A DNA stretch of 64,000 nucleotides from Gammaproteobacteria bacterium (GCA_965243205.1 CBDEUK010000002.1:2144001-2208000); one strand, 5' to 3'; counted from the first letter of the stretch, positions 5,484 through 13,826 are shown. The notes: a model not told the origin generated them from the sequence alone. Made by a program: numbers and translations.

Positions 5484-5677
5484 TAACAAAGCTCCAATGA
5501 TTAATTTTTATTGAACCATAACAAGAAAAAATACTTATTTATAGGTAAGCGGGAACAAATCACTTTCAGATAATATTATGAGGGTTTAGCATCATTCTCT
5601 TGCATTGTAATAAAGATGATATAAATCTTAATTACTCTTTAATTAATATATTTTTAGTGCCAACTCTAGTGAGGACA

Positions 5678-6337
5678 ATGTTTGTGATGAGCATTTTTAA
5701 ACCGTTCTTTTTTGCATATTGTTGCTTATTCATAAATTCTGCTTTTTCCACCACGGTTCTACAAATTCACCTCGACGATATGCTGCTCCAATCAGAATTA
5801 GTTTTTGAGGGAGAGGTACTGTCTTCTGAATCTAAATGGAATAGAAAAAAAACATTCATACATACATATGTTAATTTCAGAGTAGATGACGTTATCAAAG
5901 GAAATTACTCTGGAAATACTCTAACTCTAAGTTTTGCGGGTGGAGAAATAGATGGCGCAGTGTTACAAGTTTCTGGAATGAAATATCCTGATATTGGTGA
6001 AAAAGGTGTTTTTTTTATTGAGCAGTTAAACAAGCCACAAGTGAACCCATTTATTGGTTGGGGCCAAGGTCATTTTATAATTGCTAAAGACCAATCTGGA
6101 ACAGATCGAGTTTTAACTGAAAACAAGAAGATGGTACTAGGTTTGGAGCAAATGGAATCAACAGTTTCACGGGCTTTGAGATCTAATAGGATGCAACCAT
6201 TCGCTCATGGGGTTGCTGAAGGACTCAGGCTTGGGCAGGATAATGAGCCTTTAAGAAACGCAATGGAAAAACGAGTTTTTATATCCTCTATAAAACAAAG
6301 GTTAGTAAGATTAATGGATCAAGGATATGTTGAATAG
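5678..6337 (+). CDS. Secreted hypothetical protein with an OB-fold/TIMP-NTR-like pattern
   Basis: GAGG precedes ATG 5678 (alternative start 5687); signal peptide ending ..SAFS; ELVFEGEV...VNFRVDDVIKG...AGG pattern; stop overlaps the next GTG start. Confidence 0.65.
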   Translation: MFVMSIFKPFFFAYCCLFINSAFSTTVLQIHLDDMLLQSELVFEGEVLSSESKWNRKKTFIHTYVNFRVDDVIKGNYSGNTLTLSFAGGEIDGAVLQVSGMKYPDIGEKGVFFIEQLNKPQVNPFIGWGQGHFIIAKDQSGTDRVLTENKKMVLGLEQMESTVSRALRSNRMQPFAHGVAEGLRLGQDNEPLRNAMEKRVFISSIKQRLVRLMDQGYVE

Positions 6338-7467
6338 TGTTTATTAAAGTAATTACTTGTGTGTTTTGTTTCTTTATGAGTTTTTCTGTCAATGCATTTG
6401 TTTTAACAGGAAGTTCTTGGCCAGCAGGTGAGACTGAAGTTTATGTCAATTTTTCTGCATCTAATACATTTTCAGATACCCCAAATGTTGTGGTTCCAGG
6501 GGGGCCTTCAATAAGCGAATTACAAACTGCTTATATCGAAGCGATGGATATTTGGACTAATAACTCTACTTTTCAATATATTCCAAATACTGGAGTAGGT
6601 TTTGGAGCTCCCTGTACTTCATCATTTAATACTGCGATATTTTCAACAACTCCTGAATGCGATAGTAGTGTTTTTGGTGAAAATACTCTCGCAGTACAAT
6701 GGACGTTTAGACCTTTTGAAGGCAGTACAACTACTATTAAAACACTAACCGTTTTCAATAATGCTTTTGAATGGGATATCTATACTGGACCATGGACAGG
6801 TGTGGCTGAATTTAAACGAGTGGCCGTACATGAGCTTGGACATGGATTGGGACTTGGGCATTCCGCAGATTCTTCTGCAATCATGTGGTTTCAAGCTGGG
6901 AACACTGAAACTCCACAGATGGATGATCTAAATGGAGTTGCAGCCCTGTATGATTTAGATTCGGATGGAGTTGGTATTGCTTCAGATAACTGTCCTGATG
7001 TTGCAAATAATACTCAAACTGACACTGATTCTGACGGGCAAGGAGATGCTTGTGATAGTGACGATGATAATGATGGAATAAACGATACAGTCGACAATTG
7101 CCCAATCAATGCTAACGCTGGGCAAGCAAATTTTGATAATGATTCTGAAGGTGATGTTTGTGATTTGGATGATGACAATGATGGGCTGACTGATTTAGAA
7201 GAAATTAATACATATAATACCAACCCTTTTAATTCAGATTCAGATAACGATGGATTAAGTGATGGAGATGAAATCAATATTTATTCTACTGATCCAAATT
7301 TATCCGATACTGATAATGATGGTATTAACGATGGAGATGAAGTAACGAACGGAACCGATCCTCTTGTTAATGAGTCTGTGATAATCCCTGCTATGCCAAT
7401 GTTAGCCTTACTGATATTAGGTTTGTTCTTAATACAAGCGAATAAGTTAACTCATCGTAAAATTTGA
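6337..7467 (+). CDS. Secreted matrixin (M10-like metzincin) metalloprotease with thrombospondin type-3 Ca-binding repeats and an IPTL-CTERM-like tail
   Basis: Signal peptide (SVNA); HELGHGLGLGH zinc motif; SAIM Met-turn; DNCP/DxDxDG repeats; C-terminal IPAMP, hydrophobic helix and basic tail. Confidence 0.88.
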   Translation: MFIKVITCVFCFFMSFSVNAFVLTGSSWPAGETEVYVNFSASNTFSDTPNVVVPGGPSISELQTAYIEAMDIWTNNSTFQYIPNTGVGFGAPCTSSFNTAIFSTTPECDSSVFGENTLAVQWTFRPFEGSTTTIKTLTVFNNAFEWDIYTGPWTGVAEFKRVAVHELGHGLGLGHSADSSAIMWFQAGNTETPQMDDLNGVAALYDLDSDGVGIASDNCPDVANNTQTDTDSDGQGDACDSDDDNDGINDTVDNCPINANAGQANFDNDSEGDVCDLDDDNDGLTDLEEINTYNTNPFNSDSDNDGLSDGDEINIYSTDPNLSDTDNDGINDGDEVTNGTDPLVNESVIIPAMPMLALLILGLFLIQANKLTHRKI

Positions 7468-8865: not shown

Positions 8866-8971
8866 AGTTTTTTGTATTGAACAAGAAAATTAGTTGCTAT
8901 TGTGGCACAATTATAATGCTTAAATCATAAACCAATAACCGATTCGTTGAAGGGGAGTCGAGGAGATAACA

Positions 8972-9139
8972 ATGAGCATCAAACTAGTTTTCAAACTATT
9001 AGTGGTATCTGTTTTATCTTTCGTATTATTTGGTTGTAATAAAGATGGAGCCGAAACATCTGGTTCTACAAGTTTAGATGATAGTTCTCATATCGTTGTT
9101 TACCAAGATGAGATCTATAAAAACTGGCCATATCAGTAA
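8972..9139 (+). CDS. Small lipoprotein (55 aa), absent from the ORF track: MSIKLVFKLLVVSVLSFVLFGCNKDGAETSGSTSLDDSSHIVVYQDEIYKNWPYQ
   Basis: AGGAG SD at 8961-8965; ATG 8972; lipobox LFGC; C-terminal motif repeated in the downstream protein; TAA at 9137-9139. Confidence 0.85.
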   Translation: MSIKLVFKLLVVSVLSFVLFGCNKDGAETSGSTSLDDSSHIVVYQDEIYKNWPYQ

Positions 9140-9169
9140 TTTTAAAATTTGTTTTATAGGAGTTTTTTC

Positions 9170-10042
9170 ATGTCAGAAGTATTCAATCTAAAAGTACTAT
9201 CTATAAGTATTTTGATATTTGCACTACAAGCATGTAGTAAAGACGAACAAGAAAAGGTGAGTGATAAGTCTAATGAACCTTCTAATGTTGTTAATGTTGA
9301 ATTGAAACCTGAAAAAACTCCTGAGTCTGAAAAAGTTGAAACACCTCAAGAGGAAGCTCAATCAACAGTTGATGAGTTAATTCCTGAACCTAAACCTGAA
9401 TTATTTCATGAAGTGGTAACGCAAGAACAGATTTATAAAAACTGGCCTTACCAAGAAGAGATGCGTAATTTACCCACGCAAACATCGGTTGAACCAGAGC
9501 CTGAGACCATTATTGAAAAAGCAACCGAGGCCGTAGAAGAAAAGGCAACGGAAGTAAAAGAAGCTGTCGTTGAAAAAGTATCTGTAGCAACTGGTGCTAG
9601 TAAAGATATGGTTAGTAATGTTGTCGATAAAGTGGTTCCCGCACCTACTCCAGCTGCAACTGGAGGAGCAGAGCATGTTATTAACGCAAAAGGTTTGACC
9701 GCTTTTGATAAACCGATTCTTTATGTTGCACCTGGGGACACGATTCATTTTAAGAAATTAAATGGTGGCCATAACAGTGAGTCAGTTTTCACACCTGAAG
9801 GTGCGGAAGGTTGGAAAGGCGCTATGAATAAAAATATTTCAGTAACACTGACAGTGTCTGGTATGTATGGTTACATTTGCTTACCTCATGCGGGTTTGGG
9901 TATGAACGGCGTTATCGTTGTTGGTGATGCAGGTGATAAAGAAGCGGTTATGGAAAAACTTCGAGGATTGGAACAAACCGATCCTGCACGTAAATTATTA
10001 GGCAAAGTGAATAAAGTAAAACCTGAGAATTACGTAAAATAA
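9170..10042 (+). CDS. Lipoprotein with a long acidic/Pro-rich linker and a C-terminal pseudoazurin/plastocyanin-like cupredoxin domain
   Basis: AGGAG SD at 9158-9162, ATG 9170; lipobox LQAC; type-1 Cu ligands HN...C-x-P-H-x4-M (CLPHAGLGM). Confidence 0.88.
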   Translation: MSEVFNLKVLSISILIFALQACSKDEQEKVSDKSNEPSNVVNVELKPEKTPESEKVETPQEEAQSTVDELIPEPKPELFHEVVTQEQIYKNWPYQEEMRNLPTQTSVEPEPETIIEKATEAVEEKATEVKEAVVEKVSVATGASKDMVSNVVDKVVPAPTPAATGGAEHVINAKGLTAFDKPILYVAPGDTIHFKKLNGGHNSESVFTPEGAEGWKGAMNKNISVTLTVSGMYGYICLPHAGLGMNGVIVVGDAGDKEAVMEKLRGLEQTDPARKLLGKVNKVKPENYVK

Positions 10043-10061: not shown

Positions 10062-10090
10062 AAAAAAGCCCGCTATATGTGGGTTTTTTT
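10062..10090. terminator. Bidirectional intrinsic terminator between the convergent cupredoxin and ppk2 genes
   Basis: AAAAAAGCCCGC-tatat-GTGGGTTTTTTT stem flanked by A- and T-tracts. Confidence 0.8.
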
Positions 10091-10961
10091 ATTTTGACAT
10101 TAAACGTTTTTTATAGCCTTCAAATTTTTCTTTTTCGTCCTTTGAAACTTTTGGATAATGCATATCCATATTTTTCATAGTGTTTAAAATAATCTCAGCC
10201 ACTCGCATACGCATAAAAGGTTTATCGTCTGCAGGTATGGCGTACCAAGGTGCCCAAGGTTTAGAAGTCGTACGTAATGTCTCTTCATAAGCATGCATAT
10301 AATCATCCCATAATTTACGTTCATCCAAATCACCTTCATTAAATTTCCAATGTTTTTCAGGTTCTTCTAAACGACTTAAGAAGCGTTGTTTTTGTTCTTC
10401 TTTAGAAACGTTGAGCCAGAACTTGATAATCACAGTTCCGTTTTGTGCAAGATGTTTTTCAAACTGATTTATAGACTCAAATCGATCTTGCCAAATAGTC
10501 TCACGATTTATTTCTGCTGGAAGTCGTTGGTAATTTAAGTACTCTGGATGAACACGAACGACTAAGACTTCCTCGTAATAACTACGGTTAAATACGCCAA
10601 TGCGACCTCGTTCAGGTAATGCTTTGGTGGTACGCCATAAAAAGTCGTGATCTAATTCCTCAGCACTGGGTTTTTTGAAACTATGAACCTGACAGCCGGC
10701 TGGGTTTAAACCACGGGTGACGGCACGAATAGTACTGTCTTTACCAGCTGCATCCATCGCTTGAAAGACCAATAAAATAGCGTGATGGTCATGCGCATAC
10801 ATAATTCGTTGATAATCATCCATTTCATCGATGTATTTATTCAAACGTTTTTTACACTCTTTACGATCAGGGGCTGCATCAGGCGGAGCTGTAGGGGAAG
10901 ATTCGAGGCTGAAATTGCCTTTGAAAGAAACCAAGTAAGGGCTTTCAACAGAGTACTTCAT
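10089..10961 (-). CDS. ppk2: Polyphosphate kinase 2 family protein (polyP:nucleotide phosphotransferase)
   Basis: QAMDAAGKDS Walker A; FKKPSAEELDHDFLWR; FNRSYYEEVL; APWYAIPADDK. Confidence 0.92.
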   Translation of the reverse strand: MKYSVESPYLVSFKGNFSLESSPTAPPDAAPDRKECKKRLNKYIDEMDDYQRIMYAHDHHAILLVFQAMDAAGKDSTIRAVTRGLNPAGCQVHSFKKPSAEELDHDFLWRTTKALPERGRIGVFNRSYYEEVLVVRVHPEYLNYQRLPAEINRETIWQDRFESINQFEKHLAQNGTVIIKFWLNVSKEEQKQRFLSRLEEPEKHWKFNEGDLDERKLWDDYMHAYEETLRTTSKPWAPWYAIPADDKPFMRMRVAEIILNTMKNMDMHYPKVSKDEKEKFEGYKKRLMSK

Positions 10962-11655: not shown

Positions 11656-12159
11656 ATGAAGTTAACACGAAGAATGTTATTAATCGCGACCTCAGTCAGT
11701 GCTATTTCGGTCGCGACCTACCGTTTGTTTAGCGCAAGTAAACCTGAAAGTTTATTAACGACTGTCTTACCCGAGTTTTTAGATACTTTAATTCCTAGTG
11801 ATCAAACCCCATCGGCTTCACAGCTGAACGTAGATGAAGATATGATTGACTATCTTCAAGAAAAGTTACGATATAAAAATATTGTGATGTTTGGATGTGC
11901 ATGGCTTAACAAACAAGCCAATGAAATTTTTTCTGAGGACTTTTTGAATTTAGATACACAACAAAAAATACAAATTGTTGAGAAATTAGAATCCACGAAA
12001 CAAAACCAAACAGCACAGTTTTTCTTTCATCATATAAAAGACAAAGCATTTGAGTTTTACTATTCCAAACCACAAAGTTGGATCGGTCTTGAGTTTCATC
12101 AACCACCACAGCCTCTTGGATACAATGATTACAATCAAAGGACCATTCACACTTCATGA
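11656..12159 (+). CDS. Gluconate 2-dehydrogenase subunit 3-like small subunit with a Tat signal
   Basis: TRR Tat motif; DTLIPSDQTPSA and FYYS..SW..L motifs; 4-bp overlap with the GMC gene. Confidence 0.8.
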   Translation: MKLTRRMLLIATSVSAISVATYRLFSASKPESLLTTVLPEFLDTLIPSDQTPSASQLNVDEDMIDYLQEKLRYKNIVMFGCAWLNKQANEIFSEDFLNLDTQQKIQIVEKLESTKQNQTAQFFFHHIKDKAFEFYYSKPQSWIGLEFHQPPQPLGYNDYNQRTIHTS

Positions 12160-13826
12160 GTGATGAATACGATGTTGTTATTATAGGTTCTGGTGCGGGT
12201 GGCGGTGCTTGTGCCTGGACATTGAGCAAACAGGGTGTGAATGTTTGTTTATTAGAAGCAGGTCCCGCATATGACTATCAAAAAGATTATCGTCTAGAAC
12301 ATAATGACTGGGAAGTATATGGTTTTCCAGAAAAACAAAGCTCATCTAATCGACAAACATTTGGTGAATTTCAGTCATTAGATCGTAAATGGTCTGATTT
12401 ATTTTCATGGAATCATGAAACAGGCCGGTTGAATAAAACCGATAAACGAATAGTTTTCGCATATCATCATGTTCGAGGTGTTGGAGGTTCAACCTTGCAT
12501 TTTAGTGGAGAGGCTCATCGCATGAATCCTGAGTCGATGAATCTCAAAACCAAATTTGATGTTGCGGCTGATTGGCCCGTGAGTTATGCGGAACTCGAAC
12601 CTTATTATCAACTGGCTGAAAAAATCATTGGCGTTGCTGGCGGTGTAGATAATCGTTGTTGGCGTTCTGAGCCATATCCTTTGCCAGAGCATGAGTGGAA
12701 TTATCACAGTCATTTATTGAAATCAGGTTTTGCAGAAAATGGTATGAATTTACAGAGTAATTCATTAGCTATTTTATCTAAGCCATACAACGATAGACCA
12801 GCATGTAATCACTGTAATAATTGTACTAAAGGTTGTCCTCGAGCGGATAAAGGCAGTGTTGATGTCACTTTTATTCGACAAGCCAGGGCCTTTGATAACT
12901 TTACTCTAAAGGTAGAAGCCACAGTAACTCAAATTAAAAGTACTGAGAATGACAAGGTAACGGCAGTTACTTATTTTGATAGCAATGGCAACGAACAATC
13001 ATTGACGGCACGAGTGATAGTAGCTGCATGTGGAGCAGTTGAAACTCCTAGGTTATTACTCAACTCTGAAAGTAATCATGCCAAGCAGGGTTTGTCCAAT
13101 GACTCAGGGCAACTAGGAAAGAATTTTATGGAAACAGTCTTTTGGCATACCAATGCGTTACATGAAGAACCATTGGGTAGTCATCGTGGTATTCCATCCG
13201 ATGTGGTGTGTTGGGACTTTAATAACCCAGATTCTATTGAAGGTGTTATAGGCGGTTGTCGATTCAGTTCTGGTGTGGGGGAAACCGATTTAGTTGGTCC
13301 TGTGAATTATGCTAAGCGTGTTGTAAATGGTTGGGGGCTAAAACATAAACAAACTATGCGTGAACAATTTGGCAAAGTTATTTCCATAGGTGCTGTTGGA
13401 GAAAGTTTGCCGCATGCGAAAAGTTTTATTGATCTAGATCCCAATGAAAAAGATCAATTTGGTTTAGCAAAAGCAAGAATTCACAGTTTTGTTGATGAAA
13501 TGCAATTAAATCGTCTATCTTTTATGAAGCAGCGTTGCCGTGATGTTGTAAAAGCCAGTGGCGCTGAGACTATTTTTGAAGAGTATGGTAACTATGATTA
13601 CTTCAGCGCAACTCATGTTTTTGGGACTTGTCGTATGGGTAATGATGCTGAAGATTCAGTAGTTGATCGATTTGGCCAAAGTCATCGATTCAAAAATTTG
13701 TTTATTGCCGATGCCAGTGTGTTCCCTAGTTCAGGCGGTGGGGAAGCACCTTCCCTTACGATTGAAGCTCTGGCTCTTAGGACAGGCGATAGAATTGTGG
13801 ATTTATTGCAGAAAAAACAGCTATAG
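12156..13826 (+). CDS. GMC family FAD-dependent oxidoreductase (large subunit)
   Basis: IIGSGAGG FAD motif; RGVGGSTLH; Cys cluster CNHCNNCTKGCP; HVFGTCRMG; DASVFP. Confidence 0.92.
   Translation: MSDEYDVVIIGSGAGGGACAWTLSKQGVNVCLLEAGPAYDYQKDYRLEHNDWEVYGFPEKQSSSNRQTFGEFQSLDRKWSDLFSWNHETGRLNKTDKRIVFAYHHVRGVGGSTLHFSGEAHRMNPESMNLKTKFDVAADWPVSYAELEPYYQLAEKIIGVAGGVDNRCWRSEPYPLPEHEWNYHSHLLKSGFAENGMNLQSNSLAILSKPYNDRPACNHCNNCTKGCPRADKGSVDVTFIRQARAFDNFTLKVEATVTQIKSTENDKVTAVTYFDSNGNEQSLTARVIVAACGAVETPRLLLNSESNHAKQGLSNDSGQLGKNFMETVFWHTNALHEEPLGSHRGIPSDVVCWDFNNPDSIEGVIGGCRFSSGVGETDLVGPVNYAKRVVNGWGLKHKQTMREQFGKVISIGAVGESLPHAKSFIDLDPNEKDQFGLAKARIHSFVDEMQLNRLSFMKQRCRDVVKASGAETIFEEYGNYDYFSATHVFGTCRMGNDAEDSVVDRFGQSHRFKNLFIADASVFPSSGGGEAPSLTIEALALRTGDRIVDLLQKKQL

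Follow-up and report, generated by a model that had tools for sequence, protein, structure and literature searches.

A 64,000-nucleotide stretch of a Gammaproteobacteria bacterium genome (GCA_965243205.1 CBDEUK010000002.1:2144001-2208000; 'the window' below, meaning that whole stretch) carries a small gene for a 55-residue lipoprotein-type protein directly upstream of a gene for a lipoprotein-tethered, pseudoazurin-like cupredoxin, and the products of both genes contain a copy of the same 16-residue peptide. Judged from sequence comparison, the small open reading frame (ORF) is a real, conserved gene and its peptide is under strong purifying selection. The peptide module and the mini-lipoprotein family built around it are probably undescribed, strongly selected and narrowly distributed, being found in one uncultured marine group. 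Tentatively, we read the motif as a portable docking peptide on a flexible, lipid-anchored tether, by which electron carriers and a carrier-less adaptor or competitor would reach one common partner.

The two genes and their shared peptide

The features of the gene pair, by position in the window, are as follows.

8960..8965, plus strand: Shine-Dalgarno-like GAGGAG, 6 nt 5' of the small-ORF ATG (sequence reading)
8972..9139, plus strand: small lipoprotein gene, 55 residues and stop (ORF list; orthologues in nine genera)
8972..9037, plus strand: lipoprotein signal peptide with terminal lipobox LFGC, Cys22 at 9035-9037 (pattern reading)
9038..9088, plus strand: Ser/Asp/Gly-rich spacer of about 16 residues, predicted disordered, variable among relatives
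9089..9136, plus strand: C-terminal motif copy 1 of the small lipoprotein, HIVVYQDEIYKNWPYQ
9158..9162, plus strand: Shine-Dalgarno-like AGGAG, 7 nt before the ATG at 9170 (sequence reading)
9170..10042, plus strand: lipoprotein-tethered pseudoazurin-type cupredoxin, 290 residues and stop; lipobox LQAC, Cys22 at 9233-9235
9407..9454, plus strand: motif copy 2, HEVVTQEQIYKNWPYQ, residues 80-95, within an E/P/K/T-rich linker
9665..10039, plus strand: pseudoazurin-like domain, residues 166-290 (PF00127; PDB; soluble homologue)

Translation of 8972-9139 gives MSIKLVFKLLVVSVLSFVLFGCNKDGAETSGSTSLDDSSHIVVYQDEIYKNWPYQ, and the protein collection contains this exact 55-residue sequence, which is the window's own product. 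Its N-terminus, MSIKLVFKLLVVSVLSFVLFGC, is of the lipoprotein type, with Lys4 and Lys8 in the n-region and a match to the lipobox pattern ([LVI][ASTVI..][GAS]C, with the Cys at about residues 15-35) at Cys22, and the protein is a putative Lgt/LspA substrate. A first-pass annotation of the window, made by a model from the sequence alone, had described a strong Shine-Dalgarno sequence and an LFGC lipobox for this ORF, and both are as it reported. It had also recognized no named family, and none emerged from library searches: no match in Pfam, NCBIfam or the PDB covered the motif. The best Pfam match to the 55-residue protein (E 0.064) lay under the cut-off, the best NCBIfam match (15.7 bits against a cut-off of 50) involved the signal-peptide region only, and PDB profile matches were restricted to the signal peptide, with no chain matching the motif. 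A profile of the motif alone reached no better than E 0.29, and the ESM Atlas held no usable match for the small protein.

The second gene begins 30 nt further downstream and, because this intergenic gap is so short, the two probably form a single operon. Its product also matches the lipobox pattern (…LIFALQAC, Cys22) and carries the motif in its linker, as had been noted in the first-pass annotation, which called the protein a cupredoxin. That assignment is borne out by a Pfam PF00127 match over residues 175-251 (39.9 bits, cut-off 21.2) and by the PDB, in which the best relatives are all pseudoazurins (e.g. 3tu6, E 5.5e-20; 1bqk is another). The score against the pseudoazurin equivalog TIGR02375, 80.9 bits, lies under the cut-off of 109.85; we use 'pseudoazurin-like' because the PDB relatives are all pseudoazurins although this cut-off is missed. 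In pseudoazurin the type-1 copper ligands are His, Cys, His and Met with C-x2-H-x4-M spacing, and the carrier has the corresponding pattern at H201, C237, H240 and M245 (CLPHAGLGM). The genome also encodes a soluble pseudoazurin, to which the tethered domain is identical at 105 of 124 positions (84.7%). Thus it is the tether and motif, and not the redox domain, that distinguish the window carrier.

The stretches of 48 nt coding for the two motif copies agree at 34 bases, and 12 of the 16 residues are identical. The first-pass annotation had counted the same 12 residues and pointed to several synonymous codon differences; our recount of the codon differences gives six synonymous and four non-synonymous. 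In a six-frame translation of the genome of origin (2.79 Mb, 36.7% G+C) the pattern [IVL]Y[KR]NWPY occurs at these two sites only, so that a chance resemblance is excluded.

Conservation and carriers of the module

When 61 related genomes were searched with the 55-residue protein, adjacent-ORF motif matches appeared in several genera of the family, and the loci that we read had the same layout each time: a motif-ending lipoprotein of 55-90 residues followed directly by a larger lipoprotein. A scan for VVY[QE][DE]EIY, with one genome per GTDB species, gave 24 confirmed loci, all from uncultured metagenome-assembled genomes titled 'Thiotrichaceae bacterium' or 'Gammaproteobacteria bacterium'. 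With a motif-only profile, the motif was found in 43 of 126 genomes and nine of 34 genera of one uncultured gammaproteobacterial family. Twenty-two of the 43 motif-positive genomes have two or more matches and 21 have one, the latter including the single-contig genomes G020, G075, G101 and G102; in about half of the 43, the small protein alone bears the motif. In a collection of 5.8 billion proteins the small-protein profile matched at least 159 proteins at E<=1; among the matches listed, the 120 small proteins are either 'hypothetical' or plainly misnamed, and none has a Pfam domain. The first-pass annotation had proposed a search of this kind and had allowed that the ORF might prove not to be conserved; the small gene is kept in nine genera.

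The small proteins are constrained where they end. A lipobox is present in 119 of 121 small-family proteins, and all 121 stop 0-3 residues past the motif, their C-terminus being near-invariant over about 20 residues, (I)EKAEGV[VI]YQDEIYANWPYN, while the spacer varies freely. All 121 sequences agree at V0, Y2, D4, Y7, W10 and P11. The module measures 16-28 residues and is built on the core V-[VI]-Y-Q-[DE]-E-I-Y-x-N-W-P-Y; the form found in most of the small proteins is IEKAEGVVYQDEIYANWPYN. For the 13-codon core, compared in 22 distinct coding versions, the Nei-Gojobori method (NG86) gave a proportion of synonymous differences (pS) of 0.80, which is saturated, and a proportion of non-synonymous differences (pN) of 0.057, or a pN/pS of about 0.07. 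Because synonymous change is saturated while non-synonymous change is rare, selection acts on the peptide, as the first-pass annotation had proposed from the two copies of the window.

These figures bear on whether the small gene could be a non-functional by-product, left over when the 5' end of the carrier gene was duplicated and truncated, and open only by chance. At the DNA level the small gene is indeed related to the region coding for the carrier's N-terminus: the two are 66.7% identical over 150 aligned nt of the window and, for a second small gene of the sister genome, 73.6% over 258 nt, so that duplications of the cassette do occur. However, a chance remnant would hardly be kept in nine genera with synonymous change saturated and non-synonymous change rare, nor would 121 proteins always end at the motif, and the motif is better conserved in the small proteins than in the carrier's own copy. 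We regard this explanation as scarcely credible.

In the relatives, the downstream lipoprotein typically has a linker motif …YLPSQVVYQEEIYKNWPYTEAP… and ends in either a pseudoazurin-like cupredoxin or a class-I cytochrome c with CGACH. Among 54 longer motif proteins collected with a carrier-motif profile, 33 match cytochrome c (PF13442) and 13 cupredoxin (PF00127), and no other domain type was found; the remaining eight, without a Pfam match, are fragments, one small-family member and motif-only proteins. The first-pass annotation had tied the motif to electron carriers on the strength of one cupredoxin. The link is stronger than that, because the motif occurs on two unrelated carrier folds and on no others. 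The cytochromes are only distant relatives of XoxG/cytochrome cL (TIGR03874, TIGR03872): they match TIGR03874 at E 1e-12 to 1e-14, with 45.8-53.7 bits against a cut-off of 161.75, and PDB entry 6onq at E 5.7e-6.

A HMMER scan of 1.84 billion cluster representatives returned just 22 proteins at E<=1e-3. The top representative match, a metagenomic protein of 1436 residues (P0175), was rejected as a false positive, consisting of S/P/T-rich repeats without the EEIY core; its approximately 27 repeats of SHWPYTDAPS echo the WPYTEAP tail of the carrier motif.

In every carrier the motif sits between the predicted lipid-modified Cys and the redox domain, and Cys and core stand a median of 46 residues apart in the small proteins and 57 in the carriers, with spacers of 24-81. 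The module is present in tandem, as two copies, in cupredoxins P0122 and P0176 and, in a divergent form, in P0179 and P0180, while P0124 fuses a carrier-type and a small-type copy. There are seven distinct loci in which a motif-bearing small protein is followed by a lipoprotein cytochrome c without the motif, and two genomes in which it is followed by no carrier gene at all.

Candidate functions and partners

AlphaFold2 (AF2), run on an 89-row alignment, places a helix at residues 3-20 of the small protein, with a predicted local distance difference test score (pLDDT) of about 83 for the signal peptide, whereas spacer residues 27-36 score under 50. The motif scores about 70 and forms a one-turn helix only. 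In a single-sequence prediction of P0124 the mean pLDDT is 56 and nothing is structured outside the signal helix, so that it has no bearing on motif-motif pairing. Given a disordered spacer and a single helical turn in the alignment-based model, the module looks like a short linear motif on a disordered tether, and not like an autonomous domain.

Docking, the reading that we tentatively favour, would work as follows. The peptide would bind one common partner in the envelope, which most likely belongs to the electron-transfer chain of the periplasm or inner membrane. On a carrier it would be a second attachment point between lipid anchor and redox domain, so that the pseudoazurin or XoxG-like cytochrome c domain could swing on the distal linker near the partner. 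The small lipoprotein, being anchor, spacer and peptide only, would fill that site too: it might be the partner's membrane adaptor, or it might compete and so limit the number of docked carriers. We favour docking because the motif is found on just two unrelated folds, both of them small electron carriers, because it has a fixed place in the tether, because its polar and aromatic residues are extremely conserved, because the module is tandemly duplicated in some proteins, as fits an independent binding unit gaining avidity, and because it is kept on the small protein where no other protein has the motif. That the motif binds a protein, which protein this might be, and the choice between adaptor and competitor are what we infer from this pattern. 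The first-pass annotation had proposed a docking or assembly element for a dehydrogenase, an oxidase or the two lipoproteins themselves; the real gene, the selected peptide and the link to electron carriers all stand, while docking of the two proteins to each other is not the whole story.

A more specific form of the proposal, which is possible but doubtful, would make the module a plug that fits one electron-transfer hub, peculiar to this lineage and located in the periplasm. The small lipoprotein would be a membrane adaptor recruiting a redox enzyme, otherwise soluble or integral (e.g. one of the highly conserved pyrroloquinoline quinone (PQQ) alcohol dehydrogenases or a terminal oxidase), and interchangeable carriers, pseudoazurin or XoxG-like cytochrome c, would dock there by means of an identical plug. 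If true, this would be a bacterial wiring of respiration based on a linear motif, with a motif-only protein regulating or scaffolding it.

Mutual binding is the nearest rival to a common partner. Here the peptide would pair with its own copies, as homo- or hetero-complexes, and bundle the tethers, with the small lipoprotein as co-anchor or scaffold. The genes are adjacent and probably co-transcribed, four polypeptides carry two copies, and P0124 joins both types in the manner of a Rosetta-stone fusion. Nonetheless, pairing with the carrier is not a conserved function, because 21 of the 43 genomes have a single motif protein and seven loci have a motif-less cytochrome c, and near-invariant polar residues (Q, D, E, N) are more typical of a specific hetero-interface. 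We consider self-association unlikely, although homo-oligomerization is a possible form of it.

The lengths of the spacers also admit an envelope tether, in which the peptide binds peptidoglycan, an outer-membrane protein or the membrane surface and thereby fixes the height of the lipoprotein. Spacers of 24-81 residues between Cys and motif could span much of the periplasm, and the abundance of aromatic and acidic residues in the motif resembles that of interfacial anchors. At position +2, 116 of 119 small proteins and 48 of 52 carriers have G or S. By the sorting rule of E. coli this would direct them to the outer membrane, from which the motif could extend back to another layer, though this lineage's rules may differ. 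On the other hand, a general anchor would be expected on other kinds of lipoprotein, whereas only cytochrome c (33 of 54) and cupredoxin (13 of 54) were seen; this reading strikes us as rather improbable.

Several observations weigh against docking to a common partner. First, the extended motif changes together in small protein and carrier. In the genus of this genome and its sister (g1), H-x-V-V precedes the core in both genes, while in genus g21 the module, with YDPDVPSMVVEDNGV..., is longer and different (…AYDPDVPSMVVEDNGVIxxEEIYKxWP[QE]) and is common to the small gene and the adjacent cupredoxin. Such concerted change fits a common partner, but it fits equally well with mutual binding, which it may be counted to favour, or with gene conversion of adjacent genes. 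Second, the small proteins of two genera stop at …AEGVVYMD[DE]IYK, without NWPY:

L008:989-1246 (G019): NWPY-less small lipoprotein
L112:1629-1835 (G011): NWPY-less small lipoprotein

The aromatic tail is thus not always required. In G019 the adjacent cytochrome c retains the full motif. Third, the neighbourhood gives no clue to a partner. The conserved block consists of housekeeping genes without a respiratory enzyme: on one side an ABC-2 transporter, a 3-hydroxyisobutyrate-dehydrogenase-like gene, sometimes an arginine decarboxylase, and a divergent M20 peptidase; on the other a gamma-carbonic-anhydrase-like hexapeptide protein and often mnmG/gidB/parA. Of five motif-negative genomes, two had the M20 neighbour, among different flanking genes, which is uninformative on the origin of the pair. 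Fourth, a PQQ alcohol dehydrogenase (TIGR03075) is encoded in 123 of the 126 family genomes and the motif in 43, so that the distribution of the enzyme does not discriminate; neither it nor the neighbourhood pointed to a partner.

The same neighbourhood bears on whether the Tyr/Trp/Glu-rich C-terminus might be the precursor of a modified peptide or peptide-derived cofactor, processed as are PqqA and the quinone cofactors. A precursor would be in keeping with a 20-mer that is extremely conserved, stands at the C-terminus of the small protein and includes four aromatics together with Glu/Asp. Yet the peptide lies behind a lipoprotein export signal and is internal in the carriers, no radical-SAM or other maturase family is found among the conserved neighbours, although precursors of PqqA or of ribosomally synthesized and post-translationally modified peptides are cytoplasmic and encoded beside dedicated maturases, and the divergent M20 peptidase has, by reading, no signal peptide. 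A precursor is very improbable.

Conceivable partners for a docking peptide in this genome are a bc1 complex (cytochrome c1), a cbb3 oxidase (CcoO, CcoP), a caa3-type fusion of subunit II and cytochrome c, and PQQ dehydrogenases of the methanol/ethanol family, three of which score above the TIGR03075 cut-off. MoxJ-like and SoxYZ-like genes accompany these dehydrogenases as accessories, and a cytochrome P460 is also encoded. A complex prediction for the mature small protein (residues 23-55) with the PQQ alcohol dehydrogenase (25-655) and the MoxJ-like protein (25-292), run without controls, gave 0.02 against a mark of 0.32 and counts neither for nor against binding. MxaJ is a PQQ-insertion chaperone (PMC12276312), which makes the MoxJ-like protein less likely as the receptor. 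The neighbourhood of the soluble XoxG-like cytochrome showed no evident partner gene. Other features of the operon and of the redox inventory are:

Window 10067..10095, no strand given: possible bidirectional terminator hairpin (AGCCC / GGGTT) with a T-run and a 9-nt loop, weak, found by eye
G000 C2:2279431-2279661 (L075:3315-3773), minus strand: soluble pseudoazurin paralogue with Sec-type signal, 84.7% identical to the tethered domain
G000 C1:198789-199193 (L048): soluble XoxG-like cytochrome c paralogue with Sec-type signal, of the kind that is tethered with the motif in relatives
G000 C2:209642-211606 and 537783-539765 (loci L079-L107): PQQ methanol/ethanol-family dehydrogenase

The hairpin falls between the convergent cupredoxin and PPK2 genes, and a promoter and terminator scan around the operon, in which it went unflagged, yielded nothing convincing.

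A few further observations were made in passing. The PQQ methanol/ethanol-family dehydrogenase of the loci listed above is unusually conserved, at 74-92% identity across 26 of 30 sampled family genera, with a MoxJ-like gene downstream, a SoxYZ-like carrier gene upstream and no adjacent cytochrome. A Methylophaga-like methylotroph host using the ribulose monophosphate pathway was considered and dropped, as hexulose-phosphate synthase was not found above cut-off. At G000 C1:229325-231261 (L076), a MauG/MbnH/peroxidase-like di-haem enzyme, an amicyanin-like cupredoxin (107 residues) and a cytochrome c (140 residues) lie in operon-like order, and G000 C2:1668780-1671290 encodes a deca-haem c-type cytochrome (503 residues, 10 CxxCH), a Tll0287-like protein and a mono-haem cytochrome c. 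In the window, positions 11656-13826 (plus strand) hold a 167-residue protein with a twin-arginine-like N-terminus (MKLTRRMLL...) whose gene overlaps the start of one for a 556-residue oxidoreductase of the flavin adenine dinucleotide (FAD)/GMC type; by ORF reading, the pair resembles the small and large subunits of gluconate-2-dehydrogenase, with no cytochrome c subunit in the operon, and the sister genome has a GMC_oxred_C match at the equivalent place (L028). Also on the plus strand, a 245-residue protein without a Pfam family (5600-6337) precedes the gene for a matrixin-like (PF00413) metalloprotease (6337-7467), a secreted protein that contains thrombospondin type-3 and bacterial TSP3 repeats and has a hydrophobic tail at its C-terminus.

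Comparison with known systems

Only in a few model systems is it understood how an electron carrier of the periplasm reaches its partner and remains close to it; these include transmembrane-anchored cytochromes and the lipoprotein carriers of Neisseria. A motif present on two carrier folds and on a mini-lipoprotein suggests that electron carriers are addressed in a modular way, by sequence, and adds a conserved family of 55-90-residue proteins that is nameless in current domain libraries. A receptor, if found, would reveal the physiological partner of the carriers in an abundant uncultured marine lineage rich in PQQ dehydrogenases, and the peptide might then serve as a small portable tag for positioning periplasmic redox proteins. 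A literature search confined to NWPY lipoproteins and membrane-tethered pseudoazurin lipoproteins turned up nothing relevant.

Soluble pseudoazurin corresponds to the C-terminal 125 residues of the window carrier, which differs from it in 165 extra N-terminal residues comprising lipoprotein signal, linker and motif. XoxG/cytochrome cL (6onq, TIGR03874) is the best match both of the relatives' cytochrome c and of this genome's soluble paralogue, and we know of no XoxG with a lipoprotein tether and such a motif.

Membrane-anchored cytochromes c, such as c552 of Paracoccus, offer a second comparison. Cytochrome c_y of Rhodobacter capsulatus is likewise a membrane-anchored carrier, with a long flexible linker, and shuttles within bc1-cbb3 supercomplexes (PMC7876108); it serves as the functional model of a leashed carrier. 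Cytochromes of this type have a transmembrane-helix anchor, no separate conserved linker peptide and no carrier-less paralogue, whereas the window carrier has a predicted lipid anchor and a second conserved element in mid-linker.

In its general properties the window peptide resembles the short linear motifs of eukaryotes, which are likewise short conserved peptides with fast-evolving disordered flanks, portable, sometimes in tandem and without an autonomous fold. This is a functional analogy only.

The closest analogue appears to be the Lip/Laz pair of Neisseria, in which Lip is essentially made of the Ala/Pro-rich element (AAEAP repeat) of the Laz linker. Laz is a lipid-modified azurin whose linker contains the H.8 epitope (PMC6277709), and Lip, the H.8 antigen, has this epitope in common with Laz (PMC2188499; title of Woods 1989). 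Like the window carrier, Laz is a cupredoxin turned lipoprotein by means of a flexible N-terminal linker (PMC6277709). The carriers belong to different lineages, azurin in Neisseria as opposed to a pseudoazurin-like domain in the window and cytochrome c in its relatives, and neither window protein contains AAEAP repeats. Because the H.8 element is a low-complexity Ala/Pro-rich repeat and not a unique conserved peptide, the likeness is architectural only: in both systems a tethered cupredoxin is accompanied by a lipoprotein made of its linker element, but in the window that element is a unique aromatic and acidic 16-28-mer that is strictly selected.

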